Below, piece after piece: positions 1,826 to 8,262 of a stretch of 64,000 nucleotides of DNA (position 1 is its first letter; every line of letters begins with the position of its first letter). The stretch lies in the NCBI GenBank assembly GCA_963733095.1, contig CAVTBV010000003.1, positions 63,502 through 127,501 on the forward strand, read 5' to 3'. Both the position numbers and the translations under genes were made by a program. Origin of the DNA: Candidatus Bathyarchaeota archaeon (lineage in GTDB: Archaea; Thermoproteota; Bathyarchaeia; Bathyarchaeales; Bathycorpusculaceae). Below the pieces are notes generated by a model. The model saw only the letters and a list, made by a program, of their open reading frames with translations, ran no database searches and was not told the origin of the DNA.

Positions 1826-2272
1826 ATGAAACGCTTGTATCCAGACCAACCTGTCGTAGGCATTGGGGCAGTCATAATTCAAGATGGAAAAATAGCGCTG
1901 ATAAAACGCGGCAACGAACCAGGCAAAGGCAAGTGGAGCATACCCGGTGGTTTAGTGGAACTCGGCGAAAATCTCCCAGCTGCAGTTATCCGCGAAACCA
2001 AAGAAGAAGTCTGCCTCGACGTCGAAAATCCACAGCTAGTTGACGTGGTGGATAATGTTGATTTTGATGAGCAGGGCAAAGTAAAATATCACTATGTAAT
2101 CGTCGACTACCTCGTACACGTAAAAGCAGGAACTATACAAGCTGCAAGCGACGCTGCAGAATTACGCTGGGTATCCTTCGACGAGGTAGAAAGTTACAAT
2201 TTGACGGCTTCTTTTCGGTTTTTCTTCAAACAAAATAGGAAAAAACTTGAGGAAGCTAATTCTTATCGCTAA
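1826..2272 (+). CDS. NUDIX hydrolase (ADP-ribose pyrophosphatase-like)
   Basis: Nudix box GGLVELGE...AVIRETKEEV. Confidence 0.9.
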   Translation: MKRLYPDQPVVGIGAVIIQDGKIALIKRGNEPGKGKWSIPGGLVELGENLPAAVIRETKEEVCLDVENPQLVDVVDNVDFDEQGKVKYHYVIVDYLVHVKAGTIQAASDAAELRWVSFDEVESYNLTASFRFFFKQNRKKLEEANSYR

Positions 2273-3716
2273 AAAACAGTCGTGTTTCTCCCAGTGTCTT
2301 GATATCTAAAGCTCTGACCCGGGCAACAATTGGGAAATCCCTCACCACTTTTCCTAAAGTTAAGCAATGATGAGGTGGCAAATCACGGGCGATTGAACGT
2401 ACAGTCTCCGCATCAACGCGGGCAGCTCTCGAAACCACGTCGAGGTCATGTTCGTTGGTGAAATTGAAGAGGAAAATGTTGTCAGCTTGGCGGTAGATGG
2501 TTTCTTGGATCGTGTCAGGTTGGTTTGTGATGAAGGTTGTGAAGATGCCATAGTGGCGCATGCGGGTAACAATGTCGTCCCAGTATGTTTCGCGTAGGTA
2601 AAGGTGGGCTTCTTCGGCAAAAAGGAATACAGCTTTGAGTTTCCAGTTTGACAGAGAATCAACCAGTTTGCCCAATACGTATTCGACGACGATTTGGCGA
2701 TCGATGTTTGAAGTATTTTTTAGATTTACAACTATTGCGCCGCCCGTGTCTTTGGATTTGAAAATGGTCTCGTCAAGCAACGTTGCTTCTCCGAGACAGT
2801 CAGTGAAAAACCCTGAGTTAGCAAATGAATGAAACCTTGAAGCCAACGCATCACGCACATGCTGATTACAGTTCAAATCGCGAATTGCTTCACCCAAATT
2901 CTGCATGTTAAGTTTCCCTTGTTCTTTGAGCATTTTCCAAAGTCGCCTGAATTCTCGAGCTGAGGTTCCTGGTAGGTGCAATGCGTTCACCAATATTCCC
3001 ATGACCGTGTTTAATGGTAGCTGCTCAAGTGCCACCTTGAAGTTCTGTGAAGGTACCAGCGTGTGGATTTTATCGTAGTACATGTTTCGTTTGCCGTCGT
3101 TGGTCATTCCAAGGCTGCTGTATTCGCCGTTGAGGTCGAATATGACGACAGTGGCTTTGTAGCCGACAAGGTTTACCATGAGGAGTTTGCTGAGGTGTGA
3201 TTTACCACAGCCTTTCTTGCCTGTAATGATGTTAAGGGTACCATCGATGGATGACGCATCAACTGTAAGTAACGTGGAGTCTTTTGTTCCGCCCAATGTT
3301 ATGGGTAGTCTGCCGTCGACTTTGGCGAGCTTCATAAGCATTGGAATGGAGAGTTTCTTGATTGTGGATTGCGAACGGCTTGGAAGCCAACTGCTGCTTG
3401 GGCTGAGCATTTCGTTTTCCAACGTGGCGCGTATTTTGCAGATGAGTAGGCTTGCATCTTGGATGTACGTGATATGCGGTGCGATCTCCATAGGGTCGAT
3501 GTCTTCGCCCTGCAAGGGTTCGCCCCCATCGGGCAGCGTCCGCAACAACTCCTCCAGCACCCCTGGAACAGCAGCGAATTGAACATCGATAACCTGTGCA
3601 ATCAACGCCTTCGCGGCATCAGCATCTTCCACAAAGAGGTAATCTCCTTTTTCTGCGCTTTCCGTGGGGAAACTGATGACTTGAAGAATGTTGCCTTCTT
3701 TTTTGTATAGTTTCAT
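2256..3716 (-). CDS. herA: HerA/FtsK-like ATPase (DUF87)
   Basis: Walker A TGKKGCGKS, DLNGEY, Walker B FAEEAH, RMRHYG..TNQP; ATG at 3716 directly after nurA stop. Confidence 0.85.
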   Translation of the reverse strand: MKLYKKEGNILQVISFPTESAEKGDYLFVEDADAAKALIAQVIDVQFAAVPGVLEELLRTLPDGGEPLQGEDIDPMEIAPHITYIQDASLLICKIRATLENEMLSPSSSWLPSRSQSTIKKLSIPMLMKLAKVDGRLPITLGGTKDSTLLTVDASSIDGTLNIITGKKGCGKSHLSKLLMVNLVGYKATVVIFDLNGEYSSLGMTNDGKRNMYYDKIHTLVPSQNFKVALEQLPLNTVMGILVNALHLPGTSAREFRRLWKMLKEQGKLNMQNLGEAIRDLNCNQHVRDALASRFHSFANSGFFTDCLGEATLLDETIFKSKDTGGAIVVNLKNTSNIDRQIVVEYVLGKLVDSLSNWKLKAVFLFAEEAHLYLRETYWDDIVTRMRHYGIFTTFITNQPDTIQETIYRQADNIFLFNFTNEHDLDVVSRAARVDAETVRSIARDLPPHHCLTLGKVVRDFPIVARVRALDIKTLGETRLFFSDKN

Positions 3717-3717
3717 G

Positions 3718-4785
3718 TTAGTTTTCTCCTTTGAAACTGTAGCAGCCGAAGAGAACTTTGTGCATGTCGGGGCGGTTGACGATTTGGATGCCGTGTTTGC
3801 GGGTGATGAAATGTTTGATTGCGTAGACTTCGTTTGCGGTAAATGTGCATAGTATGTGTGAGAGCCGCAGGGTTTCTGGGTAGCTCTGAGTATACAGGTC
3901 GTTGCCAAGCAGTTTTTGGATAGCGTCAATTCGTTGTTCAACGGGTGTTTCTCTGTCAATATCCATTCTAAACGCCAAATTTGCCTTGTTTAGACGCGCC
4001 ACATACACATCGCCCAGTAACATCATAGGCGGCTTAGAATGCAACCCAGCAGTCTCAAGCAAGTAAGGCGAATCACGTTTAGGCAGTTGCTCCGTTATCA
4101 ACAAGCCATTCGCCCTCAAAGTAGTAGCTTTTGAGAACGCCAAGACGGTGCTCAGGTTTCTTCTTGCATATGTCAAGATTTCTCGGAGGCGCCGAGTTGG
4201 GGTTTCAGGGGTGCCTGCGGTTAGGGAACCATCGAAGAGAAGGACACCTTTCTGCACGGTTTTGGCTATAACGGTTTGAAGCCAACGTTCAAGGAGGCTA
4301 GCAAGGCGGTTGGGCATTTGCATTATGTTTGGGGTGGCTTGGTGGCAGCTTCCGTATGTGGTGCTGAAGTATGCGTGTTCTAAGGTGTTATAGAGTTGAT
4401 TTTTGTTGTCTTCAGTTATGTGGAAAATGAATGGTCCTAAACGCGTGTATTTGTAGGTGCCGTTCTGTTTCCAAGTTGTTGCTCCCCGGACGGCGATAAT
4501 TATGCCCGTCGTGGTTTCGCCGATTTTTATGGTTGAGGTGTCGATGGCGGCAATTAAGGTTTGTTGGTGGTTGGGTTTTAGGGTAATTGGTTGCGGTTTT
4601 AGAATTATGTTGTGGGGGATTTGTTCGGTAGTATTGAACTGTTGTACAGTTTGCTGGTTTAGGTAGTTGGGTTGGATTTGTTTTAGGGTGTGGATTGATT
4701 GTTCGAAGAAACGTTGGGGGAGGATCGAGTCTATGCCGGGTTGTGGAAAGTTATATTTGTTAGTGGTTGTATATTGTTCAATCAC
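3718..4785 (-). CDS. nurA: NurA-family nuclease
   Basis: AAIDTS, LLFDGSL, SKAT, YPETLRLSH motifs; directly upstream of herA. Confidence 0.8.
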   Translation of the reverse strand: MIEQYTTTNKYNFPQPGIDSILPQRFFEQSIHTLKQIQPNYLNQQTVQQFNTTEQIPHNIILKPQPITLKPNHQQTLIAAIDTSTIKIGETTTGIIIAVRGATTWKQNGTYKYTRLGPFIFHITEDNKNQLYNTLEHAYFSTTYGSCHQATPNIMQMPNRLASLLERWLQTVIAKTVQKGVLLFDGSLTAGTPETPTRRLREILTYARRNLSTVLAFSKATTLRANGLLITEQLPKRDSPYLLETAGLHSKPPMMLLGDVYVARLNKANLAFRMDIDRETPVEQRIDAIQKLLGNDLYTQSYPETLRLSHILCTFTANEVYAIKHFITRKHGIQIVNRPDMHKVLFGCYSFKGEN

Positions 4786-4790
4786 GATGA

Positions 4791-4856
4791 TTCACCAATA
4801 TTCAATATCTTTATTGGTGAAATATTTAAGTATTGTGCATGCACATCTTGCACAAT
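4791..4856. promoter_or_regulatory. Divergent promoter region with two inverted repeats (putative operators)
   Basis: TTCACCAATA-N11-TATTGGTGAA (4791-4821); ATTGTGCA-N9-TGCACAAT (4832-4856), overlapping palindrome TGTGCATGCACA (4834-4845); TATTTAAG between them. Confidence 0.6.
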
Positions 4857-4878
4857 TCAATATACAATAGGTGAAGAG

Positions 4879-5286
4879 TTGACACAACCACAGCAAAACC
4901 CACCAATCAAAGTAAAAATGAAAATCGGCGACATAGAATTCGAAATCGAAGCCCAAAGCGACCAAATCCAAACCGCCGTAAACCAAATCCTCACAACCGT
5001 CACTGAACACTCAAAAAACATCAACCTAACCCAAATTACCGAACGCCCCGCACCCCTCCCAAGAGCCGAAACCTGCCGAGGCGTAATCCAAAAACTCTGG
5101 GAAGAAAACTGGTTCAGCGAACCAAGAGGGTTAGACGACGTCCACACCGAACTCGCACGCAAAGGGTTCCACTACGACCGCACCGCAGTCGCCCACGCCC
5201 TCGTAGATTTGGTCAAAGACAACATCCTAACACGCATCGGCAAACCACGCCGATACCAATACGCACAAAAAAGACCCCCAACATAA
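4879..5286 (+). CDS. Small protein with C-terminal winged-HTH domain
   Basis: GGTGA RBS then TTG 4879; WFSEPRGLDDVHTELARKGFHYDRTAVAHALVDLVKDNILTRIGKPRRYQY is wHTH-like. Confidence 0.7.
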   Translation: MTQPQQNPPIKVKMKIGDIEFEIEAQSDQIQTAVNQILTTVTEHSKNINLTQITERPAPLPRAETCRGVIQKLWEENWFSEPRGLDDVHTELARKGFHYDRTAVAHALVDLVKDNILTRIGKPRRYQYAQKRPPT

Positions 5287-5294
5287 TCTATCTT

Positions 5295-6374
5295 ATGAAC
5301 CACTTTACCATAAAACCGCCCGGAATTTATGTGGAAAACATCAGGATTCAGCCGCAATCAATCGAGGGTGTAAGCACAAGCACCGCAGCTTTTTTAGGCG
5401 AAACCCAAACAGGCCCAACTACCCCGACGCTCGTTACCAGTTGGGGTGGTTTCCAGAAGTTGTTCGGTGGCTATTTTGGCGTAGATAGGTTTCTGCCTTA
5501 TGCTGTTGAAGGGTTCTTTGGGAATGGCGGTCACCGATTGTATGTGTGTAGAGTAACCAATAGCGATTATTCATCTGTCCTTGCTTTAATGGAAAAAGTT
5601 GAGGACGTATCCATTGTTTATGCTCCAAACGCTCAAGCCATAACAGGTTTGTCAAGCGCGTTAATTACTCATTGTGAGCGGTTGAGGAATCGTTTTGCCA
5701 TTTTAGATTCGCTCAAGGGACAGGATCCATGGAGCATAAATCAGCCAGTTGATTCATCGTTTGCCGCGTTGTATTACCCATGGATTTACGTAAGGGAAGC
5801 AGAGACAGGACCCGTACGTTTGGTTCCGCCAGGCGGCCATGTCGCTGGAATCTACGCTCGCACCGATAATGATGTCGGCGTCAATAAGGCACCAGCAAAT
5901 CAACTCGTCAAAGGTGCAATGGATTTAGAGTTAACAATGAAGTCTCACCAACAAGACAGCCTTGTCCCTCAAGACATAAACTGTATCCGCAACTTTGCAG
6001 GCAGAGGCATACTTGTGTGGGGTGCCAGAACCCTATCTAGCGACCCCGAATGGAAGTATGTGAATGTCCGCAGGTTACTGATTTACCTTGAGCAATCAAT
6101 AAAGAAAGGAACTACATGGGCCGTTTTTGAACCAGACAATGAGGCAACATGGACGAAAATTACAGGGTCAATCGAAAATTTTCTGATGCAAACATGGAGA
6201 AACGGCATGTTGATGGGCGCTTCTCAGAAGGAAGCTTACTTTGTACATTGTGACCGAACCACAATGAACCAAAACGACATCGACGGCAGGCGAATAAATG
6301 TTCTTATCGGCGTCGCAGTCACCAAACCAGCCGAATTCATAATTCTAAGAATTACCCATACCCTTTCCTCTTAA
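5295..6374 (+). CDS. Phage/eCIS contractile tail sheath protein (Afp2/Pvc2-like, minimal size)
   Basis: PGIYVE, AAFLG, FFGNGG, ALYYPW, VPPGGHVAGIYARTD, KAPAN, WGARTL, YVNVRRL, WAVFEP, KPAEFI. Confidence 0.92.
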   Translation: MNHFTIKPPGIYVENIRIQPQSIEGVSTSTAAFLGETQTGPTTPTLVTSWGGFQKLFGGYFGVDRFLPYAVEGFFGNGGHRLYVCRVTNSDYSSVLALMEKVEDVSIVYAPNAQAITGLSSALITHCERLRNRFAILDSLKGQDPWSINQPVDSSFAALYYPWIYVREAETGPVRLVPPGGHVAGIYARTDNDVGVNKAPANQLVKGAMDLELTMKSHQQDSLVPQDINCIRNFAGRGILVWGARTLSSDPEWKYVNVRRLLIYLEQSIKKGTTWAVFEPDNEATWTKITGSIENFLMQTWRNGMLMGASQKEAYFVHCDRTTMNQNDIDGRRINVLIGVAVTKPAEFIILRITHTLSS

Positions 6375-6424: not shown

Positions 6425-7555
6425 TTAGAGATATGAGTGAAACCCAGCAAAAATAAAACTGCTCAACCCCGTTATGACTACTAATCCGCAAGTGAGCAGG
6501 GATAGCAATTTTGTTGTCGTATACTTCTTTTGGACATAGAAAAGTTGCGATGCAGAAGCAGAAAGGAACAGTGCCAGCGTCATTGTTTCTTTGGGGTCCC
6601 AGGACCAATAGCTTCCCCAAGCAAACTGCGCCCACAACATGCCCGTCAATAATCCAAGAAAGGTGAACAGCCAAAGCATCCTTCCCGTTATCTTTGTTAT
6701 TCTGCTTTCCAAGTCGTTTATCTTTAGAACAAGGATTGCAAACAGGAATGTTAGTACATAGCCGGTAATTGCGAGTGGTGGATGGATGTAGAGCATTTGG
6801 GAGTTAAATGAATGTGAAGATGTTGTTGGGTTTGGCTGGGTTGTTGGTGTTGTTGATGGGGTTGAGTTTGAGGTGGGAATGCGCGTTGGGGTAGCTGCAG
6901 TATTGGTGGGTTGATTTGTTTGCGCATGTGTAGGTATGGGCGTGTTTGTGACGGGTGGATTGGTTGAGGTTTGTGGGGTTGTGGATGATAGGGGTGTTAA
7001 TGTTGGAATGGGTGTTGGTGCTGGAGTTGGGGTAAGTGTCAGGTTGGGATTGAAAGCAACGGTTATCAAAGGATTGGGTAAGTAACTATCTGAGTAGAAA
7101 AGATGCTCATGGATAGTTATGGCCGAAGCCGAAATCACGAGCTCATCTGGACCTTGTGAAATTCCAGTTATTTGCCATGTTGCAGTGGCAGTAGTTGGAC
7201 CAAGGGTACCGATGTTGAATGTGGGGTTGCTGACTGAGAAATGGCCGTTCTGAGAACTTAGGGTGACAGTAACGCTTAAAAACTGATTGAATAGTGGAGG
7301 CGCGTTGTTAATGTTTTGTATAGCTACGGTAACTGTTGTGGTTTGTCCAACCACTATGGTTGAGGGAATAATGTTTTGACTATTGCCCTCTAAGATGTCT
7401 AACTGTTGATTGTATGTTGAACCGTGGCAGGAACTACACTGGTTTGAAGACAGTGAAAAGACGAGTGATGCCAACAAAGCAACAGCAATAGAGATGGTTG
7501 CAAACAAAACTGTAAAAGTCATCCAGTGCAACTTTACAGTTGGTCGGGAAAACAT
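6425..7555 (-). CDS. CxxCH-containing surface protein fused to cytochrome c assembly (CcsA/CcmF-like WWD) domain
   Basis: N-terminal TM, CSSCH, beta-rich domain, Thr/Pro linker, then HPP...[20 protein letters not shown]...GFHSY. Confidence 0.85.
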
Positions 7556-7785
7556 TTTTTTCTTAGACAAACTCAAGGGTGCTAAAATAACGGGGTGCCA
7601 ACCAATTTAACTATTCTTGAAAAAGCACTTTTACAGTTAAGCAACAGAATCAAACCAGACACAAAAACCTTGTAGAAATAGAGTTGGCAAACGTGCACTT
7701 TGGTTAGCAAGCAACATTTATAGTGTGTTTTGTTCATCGTATTTAATTGATCTTTTCAAAAATTAACCAGTTGGAGGTGAAATTT

Positions 7786-8262
7786 TTGCCAGATATTGTC
7801 GATACCGCTGTGGCATCAGGAACTTTTAACACCCTTGCAGAAGCGGTTAAAGCAGCAGGCCTAGTTGATACATTAAAGGGGCCGGGTCCATTCACGGTTT
7901 TTGCACCCACCGACGAAGCATTCAAGAAAGTACCCAAAGCAGACTTTGACAAACTCATGAAGGACCCAATGAAACTAAAAGAGGTTTTAACTTTCCATGT
8001 CGTGGAAGGAAAAATGACGACCGCCGACCAGAAAGAGCATGAGTATTTGAAGGCGCTTAACGGTGGAGAACTCAGAATAGACGCAAAAAGTTGGCATCTA
8101 CACAGGAACTTAAAGGTAAACGATGCAAACGTCGTCAAACCTGACTTAGTGGTGGATAACGGAGTTTGCCATGCCATAGATAAAGTGCTGATGCCAAAGA
8201 TAGTTACCATGGAAAAATCAATTGTAAATGACCTGACAATTTTACAGGTTCCTATTTTCTAA
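7786..8262 (+). CDS. Fasciclin (FAS1) domain protein
   Basis: DIVDTAV, GPFTVFAPTDEAF, FHVVEG, NGVCHAIDKVLMP; GGAGGTG RBS then TTG. Confidence 0.92.
   Translation: MPDIVDTAVASGTFNTLAEAVKAAGLVDTLKGPGPFTVFAPTDEAFKKVPKADFDKLMKDPMKLKEVLTFHVVEGKMTTADQKEHEYLKALNGGELRIDAKSWHLHRNLKVNDANVVKPDLVVDNGVCHAIDKVLMPKIVTMEKSIVNDLTILQVPIF

Follow-up and report, generated by a model that had tools for sequence, protein, structure and literature searches.

Pvc2 of the Photorhabdus PVC and Afp2 of the Serratia Afp (6J0B, 6RAO) are contractile injection system (CIS) sheath proteins of 354-355 aa with the same minimal architecture as the protein described here. Their genes adjoin those for the tube, additional sheath paralogues, baseplate, spike, cap and ATPase. 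In published sheath structures, N- and C-terminal arms connect the subunits of the sheath mesh. Sheath proteins can also assemble without a tube or baseplate: T4 gp18 and T6SS VipA/VipB form polysheath tubules, which arise as by-products of over-expression or mutation and are not a selected natural state.

[quoted passage not shown] 2021, PMC8213781). In archaea, Cis2 of Halogeometricum borinquense lies within a cluster of 14 structural genes, including baseplate, spike and ATPase, that encodes a T6SS-like CIS (PMC11566945). The CIS of Streptomyces coelicolor works inside the producing cell and is not released (PMC10066040).

We analysed a 64-kb stretch of archaeal DNA (hereafter, the window; positions are counted from its first letter) that carries a sheath gene. 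The features that define this locus are:

1826 to 2272, forward strand: NUDIX hydrolase (PF00293), left synteny anchor of the sheath site
2256 to 3959, reverse strand: HerA-type ATPase (DUF87; PF01935, E 8.7e-14), part of an optional cassette
3718 to 4785, reverse strand: NurA-like gene, 355 aa, part of the optional cassette (NurA match at E 0.0011, below cut-off)
4699 to 5286, forward strand: upstream ORF, likely ATG at 4918 (122 aa), possibly winged-helix by weak Foldseek matches, in the HerA/NurA-like cassette
5287 to 5294, no strand: 8-nt spacer between the stop of the upstream ORF and the sheath ATG, read from the sequence
5295 to 6374, forward strand: CIS sheath gene, minimal two-domain, 359 aa, Cis2/Afp2/Pvc2-like (ORF, Pfam, PDB, AlphaFold2)
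6425 to 7576, reverse strand: CcsA-like membrane protein (PF01578), downstream of the sheath and outside the conserved neighbourhood
7747 to 8262, forward strand: conserved ORF, 171 aa, right synteny anchor, recognised by its identity among congeners

The product of 5295-6374 is a real, intact CIS sheath with a sheath fold. An intact sheath ORF with motifs from PGIYVE to KPAEFI was the core of the original prediction, and the reading frame (359 codons from an ATG, without interruption), Pfam, PDB and AlphaFold2 (AF2) all bear it out. Pfam assigned PF04984 (Phage_sheath_1) to residues 87-247 with 66.2 bits against a gathering cut-off of 31.4, and PF17482 (Phage_sheath_1C) to residues 248-354 with 54 bits against 26.9. 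These two phage/CIS sheath families were the only ones returned; the T6SS sheath families (TssB/TssC, VipA/VipB) were not among them, and no T6SS sheath chain appears among the listed sequence or fold matches. NCBIfam assigned no family, and a search of the protein Atlas returned sheath clusters only. In the PDB sequence search, 21 distinct sheath sequences matched at E <= 0.01. The AF2 monomer model (pLDDT 89.8) can be superposed on CIS sheaths of known structure at TMq 0.75-0.85. A Foldseek search returned 117 PDB matches at E <= 0.001; those at the top of the listing are CIS, tailocin or phage sheath chains, with TMq no higher than 0.85.

The ORF contains, besides PGIYVE, the motifs GVNKAPAN, FEPDN and GVAVTKPAEFI, and GVNKAPAN, FEPDN and GVAVTKP had been read as altered consensus positions. 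A 33-row sheath alignment with the consensus GVHKAPAN, FEPNN and GVAPxKPAEF shows them to be ordinary family variation, and the N-for-H change is common to several other rows. The protein has both terminal arms, which can be aligned with the Pvc2 arms. Conservation is 0.72 in the N-terminal arm (residues 6-35), 0.70 in the C-terminal strands (333-356) and 0.74 in the core. The monomer model leaves residues 1-15 disordered, a state that an exchange arm would be expected to show. A two-copy complex prediction on the same alignment scored 0.02, against a mark of 0.42, and is given no weight in either direction.

The closest solved relative in both sequence (9ezm_A, 9.5e-114) and fold (E 4e-39, TMq 0.85, 37% identity) is H. 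borinquense Cis2 (PDB 9EZM). The two archaeal proteins share a conserved sheath core, but Cis2 has 574 aa with an extra domain, whereas the window's sheath has 359 aa and stands alone, and neither family scans nor phmmer found an H. borinquense-like cluster in the source genome. The second-best sequence relative is the cytoplasmic CIS sheath of S. coelicolor (8BKY, 8BL4, 9GTP/9GTS; 2.2e-93), with 40-45% identity in structural alignments. The alignments with Pvc2 and Afp2 span the full length of both (residues 8-356 with Pvc2 7-351, 4.6e-54; TMq to Pvc2/Afp2 0.76-0.80). Unlike in their operons, partner genes are absent within the 64 kb and form only a partial set genome-wide. CIS sheaths match at 1e-114 to 1e-27, whereas T4 gp18 is a distant relative (~1e-11). 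Polysheath is a precedent for tube-free self-assembly of the kind we propose below.

We examined how the sheath gene sits among its neighbours. The stop codon of the upstream ORF occupies 5284-5286 and the sheath ATG 5295, which leaves the gap of 8 nt that had been noted. The wHTH label of the upstream ORF could not be confirmed: the protein has no Pfam, NCBIfam or PDB sequence match, and a moderate model (pLDDT 62.8) that contains a three-helix unit gave only weak Foldseek matches, mostly to winged-helix regulators (best E 0.21). The proposed linkage to the sheath holds as local adjacency; the 8-nt spacing is seen just where the HerA cassette abuts the sheath, and the HerA/NurA-like cassette is missing or non-adjacent in many congeners. 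The upstream ORF itself is 85-98% identical in five congeners, and its offset from the sheath varies from -520 to -3355 nt or the ORF is absent, which rules out a conserved upstream-ORF/sheath operon. Among cassette-bearing congeners the NurA-like gene is 68-87% identical, and the HerA-type ATPase, whose real start is probably downstream of the listed TTG, is 89-97% identical in congeners. In cassette-less congeners the NUDIX gene lies directly 5' of the sheath, and we used it as the anchor for locating empty sheath sites. On the other side, the 171-aa ORF (63-85% identity) flanks the site in sheath-bearing and sheath-less congeners; an opposite-strand ORF at 7743-8210 overlaps it and is an alternative reading. 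No homologue of the CcsA-like gene occupies the same position in the congener loci, and one congener (G071) has a 54%-identical ORF upstream of its sheath. The neighbours are NUDIX, HerA, NurA-like, CcsA-like, HIT and ABC transporter genes, and these, with the scans described below, confirm a stand-alone sheath among housekeeping genes. We note that seven DNA sequencing runs match the stretch, the best with 0.36 of sampled words, and that no RNA runs are listed.

We searched the whole genome (archaeal, 16 contigs, 95% complete) for CIS partners. Family scans returned a single sheath gene and a single tube match (PF06841; contig C14, 37761-38285). The same scans had no hit for PF04865, PF04965, PF04717, PF14065, PF05954 or PF13699, and none for a spike, Baseplate_J, gp25, Pvc16_N, Phage_GPD or eCIS_core gene. 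The tube is followed 21 nt later by a 224-aa PF19266 protein (tube2), whose top hits in the PDB are 9gtp_P (9.9e-05), a LysM baseplate chain of the Cis7 type, and 8kea_P, a 'tube initiator'; the Cis7 chain comes from the entries of the Streptomyces system, which has a full baseplate. BLASTP between tube2 and the Pvc16-like protein that accompanies the other tube type gave just E 0.007 over 55 residues, and a common family was rejected. Contig C10 carries a shortened gpD-like hub relative. When 4662 ORFs from 80 related loci served as BLAST queries, two targets alone recurred, the sheath (80 of 80 loci) and the tube (35 of 80), and contig C3 gave no CIS-family hit besides the sheath. Queries with all ORFs of three canonical congener clusters (phmmer) matched the sheath, tube, tube2, one gpD-like ORF and AAA ATPases, the last being generic CDC48-like proteins rather than the Afp15 type; the Afp16 cap is likewise unmatched (no Pvc16_N). 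Profiles from 10 of 46 seed families recovered sheath and tube only. The idea of an ammonia-oxidising archaeon was dropped, as AmoA (PF12942) was not found.

Family scans and BLAST thus agree with the original prediction that the window holds no tube, baseplate or spike partner; capsid, terminase and tape-measure families lay outside the set searched. Seen against the definition of an eCIS locus, the sheath is the single core gene in the 64-kb window and the tube is on another contig. For Afp8 and Afp11, scans of limited sensitivity found neither a PF04717, PF05954 or PF04865 match nor a homologue of the congeners' spike or Baseplate_J proteins in this 95% complete genome, apart from the gpD-like ORF on C10. 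One false negative is proven: the whole-genome PF19266 scan missed tube2, which hmmscan detects. Family scans can therefore miss weak members, and a highly divergent baseplate could have escaped detection. The genome-wide check on the original prediction turned up no complete eCIS or prophage locus, but it did reveal the tube pair on C14 and the gpD-like gene on C10. As read from sequence, the CIS set of this genome is partial and dispersed, without a recognisable baseplate or spike. Its tube is 61-66% identical to the tubes of canonical long-sheath clusters in congeners, which are its closest relatives, whereas the sheath is only 38-39% identical to the sheaths of those clusters; the two may therefore not be cognate.

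We next consider the genus, sampled as 81 genomes (80 congeners and the source genome). Intact orthologues occupy the same chromosomal site in 18 of the 80 congeners (19 of 81 with the source genome). The 19 are monophyletic (SH-aLRT 100) and all share one neighbourhood, whose housekeeping genes are syntenic in more than 20 congeners, sheath-bearing or not. Tree and synteny show vertical inheritance at one chromosomal site, probably after a single acquisition by a lineage of the genus. By family, 32 of the 81 genomes have a sheath, 34 a tube, 10 a spike and 6 Baseplate_J; among the 19 with an intact orthologue, a tube is present in 16, a spike in one and Baseplate_J in none. In two single-contig assemblies (G014, G068) the sheath lies ~0.5 Mb from the tube. 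In the near clade (NUDIX identity at least 79%), a tube accompanies 10 of 11 intact sheaths and occurs in 2 of 8 genomes without one. All these co-occurrence counts are drawn from related genomes and lack independence. Partner sets vary between a tube with an initiator-like protein and a tube with a Pvc16-like cap, with no tube in 3 of the 19, and such non-uniformity is odd for a single coherent machine.

The intact copies have diverged by ~1 or more synonymous substitutions per site, and 110 of the 171 pairs are saturated. Among the 30 lowest-dS of the 61 unsaturated pairs, sheath dN/dS is 0.09-0.19. The median of 0.150 compares with 0.02-0.17 for neighbouring genes, most of which it exceeds, and 0.082 for the tube. 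Three congeners carry broken copies (G012, G077, G094) and one a fragment (G048); the 20 sheath-less congeners examined comprise two with a short remnant (G059, G007) and 18 with clean absence at the syntenic site. This patchy distribution and breakage mean that the sheath gene is not essential. The synteny and dN/dS check attached to the original prediction does not refute it: the orthologues are syntenic and the ratio (~0.15) is far from 1, although loss and pseudogenisation do occur. The sheath is under purifying selection where present, yet dispensable and repeatedly lost.

Orphan short sheaths also occur in bacteria, including Acidobacteriaceae, Phenylobacterium, Aestuariivirga, Gaiellaceae and others (loci L005-L017, L021-L023, L029, L041 and more). 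These nearest relatives outside the genus are 41-51% identical to the window's sheath over nearly the whole length, and the tree places them as sister to the archaeal orthologues (support 87). A tube is missing within up to 10 kb at 25 of the 80 related loci, and 24 of these 25 also lack any other CIS family. Like the window's sheath, the bacterial orphans have no tube or other CIS gene nearby, and Pfam shows housekeeping neighbours for three of the loci. In contrast to the archaeon with its unlinked tube pair, they sit in unrelated contexts, with no neighbour gene common to them and often in tube-less genomes (no tube was detected genome-wide in 6 of 10 tested). Two diverged copies in Acidobacteriaceae (L007 and L008) share neighbours.

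We consider the chances about even that the archaeal gene encodes a selectively kept, dispensable, baseplate-less stand-alone sheath, putatively a polymer, that is neither one piece of a full eCIS scattered over the genome nor a dead leftover. The choice first offered, between a dispersed eCIS component and a stand-alone polymer (a putative polysheath, scaffold or decoy), is settled only in part: the sheath is solitary and kept and no complete locus was found, but partial partners exist. The protein is a minimal Cis2/Afp2/Pvc2-type sheath without insertion domain that would have been uncoupled from an injection machine and would probably still polymerise through its conserved N- and C-terminal arms. 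The most likely product in this genome would be either a sheath around a tube that the C14 tube and tube-initiator-like pair would build, or a tube-free, polysheath-like tubule. We would not expect a canonical puncturing device, as no spike or baseplate trigger was found. A solitary intact sheath for which no baseplate or spike was found, and with solitary relatives, makes a use other than classical injection probable.

The alternative that survives best, although we judge it unlikely, is a complete CIS that is dispersed over the genome, in which the sheath, tube pair and hub-like gene would work with an unrecognised, divergent or archaeon-specific spike and baseplate wedge. The three further CIS-derived genes scattered on C14 (tube and initiator-like) and C10 (gpD-like), the co-occurrence of sheath and tube across the genus despite their lack of linkage, and the proven false negative of the scans would all fit such a system. 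However, the spike, Baseplate_J and cap genes of the congeners' canonical clusters are easily recognised, and searches with the proteins of these clusters brought up no counterpart here. The 19 orthologue genomes, two of them single-contig, tell the same story of no Baseplate_J and one spike. The gpD-like gene is missing from the closest sheath-bearing relatives (G001, G002, G010) and has stop codons in 4 of ~11 genus copies, and the majority of tested bacterial genomes with orphan relatives have no detectable tube.

Lower again in probability, and in our view distinctly unlikely, is a decoy against viruses or other CISs, that is, a host sheath subunit that co-polymerises with and poisons the sheaths of myoviruses or of competitors' injection systems. 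Support for it is indirect: the polymerisation arms are conserved, the gene shows accessory-like gain and loss, and the tube-less status of many bacterial orphans would suit a protein acting on foreign assemblies. The idea does not predict co-retention with host tube pairs, and no recognisable defence gene is linked to the sheath, as judged from the Pfam content of the window and shared neighbours.

We give still less credence to a gene without function, left over from a decayed eCIS or tailocin cluster and so far spared destruction, and regard it as very improbable. Repeated loss and breakage, a dN/dS somewhat above that of most neighbours and the resemblance of the C10 hub-like gene to a decaying relic lend it something. 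Against this, 19 full-length frames persist with a low dN/dS despite their high synonymous divergence, the terminal arms are conserved, the orphan relatives in Acidobacteriaceae persist in parallel, and neither the Pfam content of the window nor the congener loci contain any further CIS debris. An integrated myovirus (prophage) tail module can be set aside as barely credible, for although the Pfam families are common to phage sheaths, the housekeeping flanks shared by congeners with or without the sheath contradict it, no tube or baseplate genes lie nearby (capsid and terminase being outside the searched families), and the closest solved relatives are CIS sheaths rather than gp18.

A stand-alone sheath remains our preferred reading of the archaeal gene. 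We also put forward a broader proposal, tentatively and as somewhat less probable than its opposite: a widespread, undescribed class of stand-alone sheaths, spread over bacteria and one archaeal genus or more, that would derive from the sheaths of injection systems and be selected without baseplate or spike, often tube-less. Its members would assemble into a polymer that does not inject, or into a minimal filament of sheath and tube whose nucleation an unlinked initiator or cap would provide. No description of orphan, solitary or domesticated sheaths was found in the literature searched, including PMC9230969, PMC8987985 and PMC8213781, sources whose supplementary tables might list partial loci. 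Genome surveys recognise a CIS by an operon that holds many core genes (PMC8213781), a design that discards solitary sheath genes.

The sheath described here combines vertical inheritance at one site, purifying selection and co-retention with unlinked tubes, and the orphan sheaths of several bacterial phyla mirror the archaeal case. With complete clusters, three-gene mini-clusters, unlinked pairs, single genes and dead remnants side by side, one genus illustrates the break-up of injection systems. If these solitary sheaths are functional, the sheath fold also serves beyond the classical machine with its baseplate trigger, and a baseplate-free role would become directly testable with one small protein. 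Should the stand-alone class prove true, it would represent a new cellular use of the contractile-sheath fold.

The sheath gene and its immediate surroundings occupy the following positions of the window:

Window 2256-5286: cassette of HerA, NurA-like and upstream-ORF genes
Window 4699-5286 (+): upstream ORF, with a probable ATG at 4918
Window 5295-6374 (+): sheath gene of contractile injection system (CIS) type, 359 codons, ATG start, uninterrupted frame
Window 6425-7576 (-): membrane protein of the CcsA-like cytochrome c assembly family

We identified the product of the sheath gene by family, structure-database and model comparisons. It matched Phage_sheath_1 (66.2 bits) and Phage_sheath_1C (54 bits) in Pfam, both above curated cut-offs, and no NCBIfam model. 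A sequence search of the PDB returned 21 distinct sheath chains at E<=0.01, headed by 9ezm_A (9.5e-114), the Cis2 sheath of Halogeometricum borinquense (accession given in PMC11566945). CIS sheaths of Streptomyces coelicolor ranked second (~1e-93), Pvc2 (4.6e-54) and Afp2 (1e-39) aligned end to end, and T4 gp18 matched at only ~1e-11. The AlphaFold2 model, built with 33 aligned relatives, had a pLDDT of 89.8 with disorder only at residues 1-15, and superposed on solved CIS sheaths in Foldseek (TMq 0.75-0.85). Most relatives carry an insertion domain that brings them to 500-1100 aa, whereas this protein lacks one; only 10 of the best 150 representatives in a 1.84-billion-protein library were 410 aa or shorter. 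Given the Pfam, PDB-sequence and AlphaFold2/Foldseek matches, the protein is a bona fide minimal CIS-type sheath. The sheath motifs named in the original prediction are present, and the positions it singled out as altered are ordinary variation within the family.

The protein, then, belongs to the CIS sheath family; considered as a genetic system, the locus lacks the features that define an eCIS locus, namely many core genes nearby, Afp8, Afp11, an adjacent tube and a cap. The source genome, G000 (2.84 Mb in 16 contigs, 95% complete), contains archaeal SSU rRNA (1484 bits against RF01959), and no archaeal AmoA was found in it. Its 16S rRNA gene (C11:37629-39122; L133:1130-2623) is followed in the 4.4 kb fetched downstream by a tRNA only and no 23S rRNA, so the rRNA genes may be unlinked. 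Spread over many of its contigs are about 50 paralogues of 850-1000 aa that combine PQQ_2 beta-propeller with bacterial Ig-like domains, and for an archaeal genome of 2.8 Mb this family is very large.

Whole-genome family scans of G000 identified the sheath gene as its sole sheath and a single PF06841 tube gene, on contig C14. They gave no match to Baseplate_J, gp25, Phage_base_V, Pvc16_N, Phage_GPD or eCIS_core; the PF19266 scan missed the tube2 gene beside the tube, yet hmmscan detects PF19266 in its product (E 9.7e-08), so negative scans, especially for weakly matching families, are no proof of absence. Two further searches of G000 were independent of Pfam. In the first, 4662 ORFs taken from the 80 public loci most closely related served as BLAST queries, and only the sheath (80/80 loci) and the tube (35/80) recurred as targets; in the second, phmmer with every ORF of canonical clusters in four congeners (G017, G006, G063 and G045) hit nothing beyond sheath, tube, tube2, generic AAA ATPases and one more ORF. 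The genes found away from the sheath are:

C14:37761-38285: tube ORF (PF06841)
C14:38307-38981: tube2 ORF, 224 aa, CIS_tube match, 21 nt after the tube
C10:50536-51237 (L178:6537-7238): shortened Phage_GPD-type hub relative, 233 aa, from the phmmer search with canonical clusters

The best PDB relatives of tube2 were 9gtp_P, a Cis7-type LysM-domain chain of the Streptomyces baseplate, and 8kea_P, annotated "tube initiator". Genes neighbouring the tube/tube2 pair (C14:37761-38981, or L003:15762-16982) are unrelated (radical SAM, TrkA, GNAT, glycosyltransferase). The C10 ORF lies among AHSA1, cupin, GNAT and FtsY genes. When it is aligned to the 359-aa Phage_GPD-type hub protein encoded by G063, only the ends of the latter (residues 6-116 and 297-355) are covered, which is why we describe the ORF as shortened. 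It occurs in 14 of 81 genomes of the genus, and because four copies contain stop codons it looks like a decaying relic. In sum, G000 contains a real sheath in an orphan position, that is, apart from tube and other CIS genes, and the searches of the genome turned up neither a spike nor a baseplate wedge that could be recognised.

We compared G000 with 80 congeners (81 genomes in total). Family matches were found in 32 genomes for the sheath, 34 for the tube, 10 for the spike, 6 for Baseplate_J and 33 for Pvc16_N; the sheath matched nothing in 16 genomes representing other genera of the same order. Complete CIS clusters do occur within the genus: a contig of G017 carries a CIS_tube protein, a spike, an eCIS_core protein, a 566-aa sheath and a tube, and clusters of 20-35 kb are present in G063 and G045. 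True orthologues of the window's sheath are distinct from the sheaths of these clusters. Eighteen congeners have an intact orthologue (357-365 aa, 58-75% identical), and all orthologues share one site, ordered MacB, NUDIX, the optional cassette, sheath, orf171, HIT, orf94 and an ABC transporter. In a quick maximum-likelihood tree of 71 rows (26 from the genus and the best 45 of 80 outside loci, the other 35 being excluded), the 19 orthologues formed one clade (SH-aLRT 100, stem 0.46).

The original prediction correctly placed the upstream ORF 8 nt before the sheath ATG, and called it a wHTH gene. This label is plausible but not established: the ORF finds no sequence match in Pfam, NCBIfam or the PDB, its three-helix model is of moderate quality (pLDDT 62.8), and its Foldseek matches, mostly winged-helix regulators, are non-significant (best E 0.21). 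Congener synteny shows that it belongs to the HerA/NurA-like cassette and is not tied to the sheath; the sheath directly follows NUDIX in cassette-free congeners, and several genomes have other genes between the two ORFs. The cassette itself is optional at this same site between NUDIX and sheath, and its HerA is 89-97% identical between species, a conservation far above that of its neighbours (dN/dS 0.023). On the other side, the CcsA-like gene lies immediately downstream of the sheath in G000 only; among the congener loci compared, its one counterpart is a 54%-identical ORF upstream of the sheath in G071.

Nei-Gojobori dN/dS of the sheath was 0.09-0.19 in the 30 lowest-dS pairs listed (61 of 171 pairs were non-saturated), and since dS is already ~1 or more these ratios are, if anything, overestimates. 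Over pairs with dS <1.6, median dN/dS was 0.150 for the sheath, 0.023 for HerA, 0.090 for NUDIX, 0.088 for HIT, 0.167 for the upstream ORF, 0.082 for the tube and 0.168 for tube2. Sheath copies are broken in G012 (deletion and stop codon), G077 and G094 (both split), and G048 retains a fragment only. The syntenic site of 20 sheath-less congeners holds no sheath; remnants persist at the empty site in G059 (39 C-terminal residues) and G007 (32 N-terminal residues). Several sheath-less genomes are as close to G000 as sheath-bearing ones (NUDIX 86% identical). The gene therefore goes back to the ancestor of much of the genus; genomes that have it maintain it, and others can do without it. It descends vertically, under purifying selection and with recurrent loss.

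The sheath is co-retained with unlinked tube pairs. An intact orthologue occurs in 19 genomes; a tube accompanies it in 16 of these, a spike in one and Baseplate_J in none. The three tube-less genomes have completeness values of 91-92%, and a contig of one, G050, begins with a cap fragment. Two kinds of unlinked pair were found: type A, a 165-aa tube followed directly by the initiator-like tube2 (12 genomes including G000), and type B, in which a Pvc16_N cap protein of ~195 aa comes after a 150-aa tube (11 of 14 type-B tube loci examined). The single-contig assemblies G014 and G068 put ~0.5 Mb between sheath and tube. Within a near clade defined by NUDIX identity of at least 79%, a criterion independent of the features counted, a tube is present in 10 of the 11 genomes whose sheath, be it orthologue or paralogue, is intact, versus 2 of 8 without an intact sheath (Fisher p 0.006, for kin genomes that are not independent). 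As a separate observation, 12 congeners with neither a sheath nor a tube match (G009, G013, G016, G020, G044, G047, G051, G053, G056, G064, G091 and G093) have Pvc16_N (cap/terminator) matches in open frames of ~290-316 aa, whose sequences may represent another solitary CIS-derived family.

The same tube tendency is seen with another short sheath, acquired separately and 46-49% identical, in G012, G054 and G059, all without an intact ancestral orthologue. The G012 copy overlaps a tube gene by 4 nt in a two-gene operon (L103:1-17110, contig C13) flanked on both sides only by large PQQ_2/Ig-like proteins of 860-980 aa, with no baseplate genes within 8 kb. In G054 (L136:6647-9665) the paralogue stands back to back with a tube gene and a 384-aa CIS_tube-AAA ATPase fusion, and in G059 (L174:3761-5516) a long tube2-like ORF of the same kind adjoins the tube. 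We know of no described tube-initiator-ATPase fusion. Counting against a simple cognate machine, the G000 tube is 61-66% identical to tubes of long-sheath canonical clusters (G006, G017) and the sheath only 38-39% to theirs.

Outside the genus, we compared the best 80 sheath loci, one genome per species. A tube was present in the fetched flanks of 55, and nearly all tube-bearing loci with adequate flanks carry an additional 5-8 canonical CIS families. The remaining 25 showed no tube in their fetched flanks, which reach up to 10 kb per side and ~9-10 kb on both sides in 13 loci, and 24 had no other CIS family; the sheath ORFs of these 25 range from 306 to 624 aa, and most are short. Pfam confirmed a housekeeping context for three:

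Acidobacteriaceae: ECF sigma factor, TPR protein, GH31 glycosidase, signal peptidase II, IleRS
Phenylobacterium: GTP cyclohydrolase I, PRA-CH, LysE, hybrid histidine kinase
Gaiellaceae: TPP enzyme, alcohol dehydrogenase

No neighbour family was common to orphan loci beyond close relatives. Genome-wide searches of ten bacterial genomes, all within these 25, found a tube in four (one copy with a stop codon) and none in six. Bacterial orphan relatives often lack a tube altogether. In the tree, the sister of the archaeal orthologues (support 87) is a bacterial orphan group of Aestuariivirga, Phenylobacterium and Acidobacteriaceae. The remaining orphan groups branch among canonical long sheaths, where the backbone is poorly resolved; orphans may have one origin or many. 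These bacterial relatives shifted our interpretation most.

In solved sheaths, an N-terminal arm and C-terminal strands mediate subunit exchange. Over the 19 orthologues, conservation is 0.72 for the arm, 0.70 for the C-terminal strands and 0.74 for the core, and the arm, disordered in the monomer model, is yet as conserved as the core. From this conservation we infer that the protein still polymerises. We therefore favour, with about half of our confidence, a baseplate-less polymer. The sheath would assemble either around a tube whose nucleation falls to the initiator-like protein, or as a tube-free, polysheath-like tubule. Over-expressed phage and T6SS sheaths form such tubules.

A dispersed but complete CIS with an unrecognised baseplate is unlikely. 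A decoy that poisons assembly is less probable again. Slightly below it stands a dead relic, contradicted by dN/dS and 19 intact frames at saturated dS, and a prophage module, contradicted by synteny, is very improbable.

The comparative evidence is the strongest part of this case. We found no description of orphan or stand-alone sheaths in the literature searched, nor in passages of PMC9230969, PMC8987985 and PMC8213781. Solitary sheath genes are invisible to CIS surveys built on operons of many core genes.
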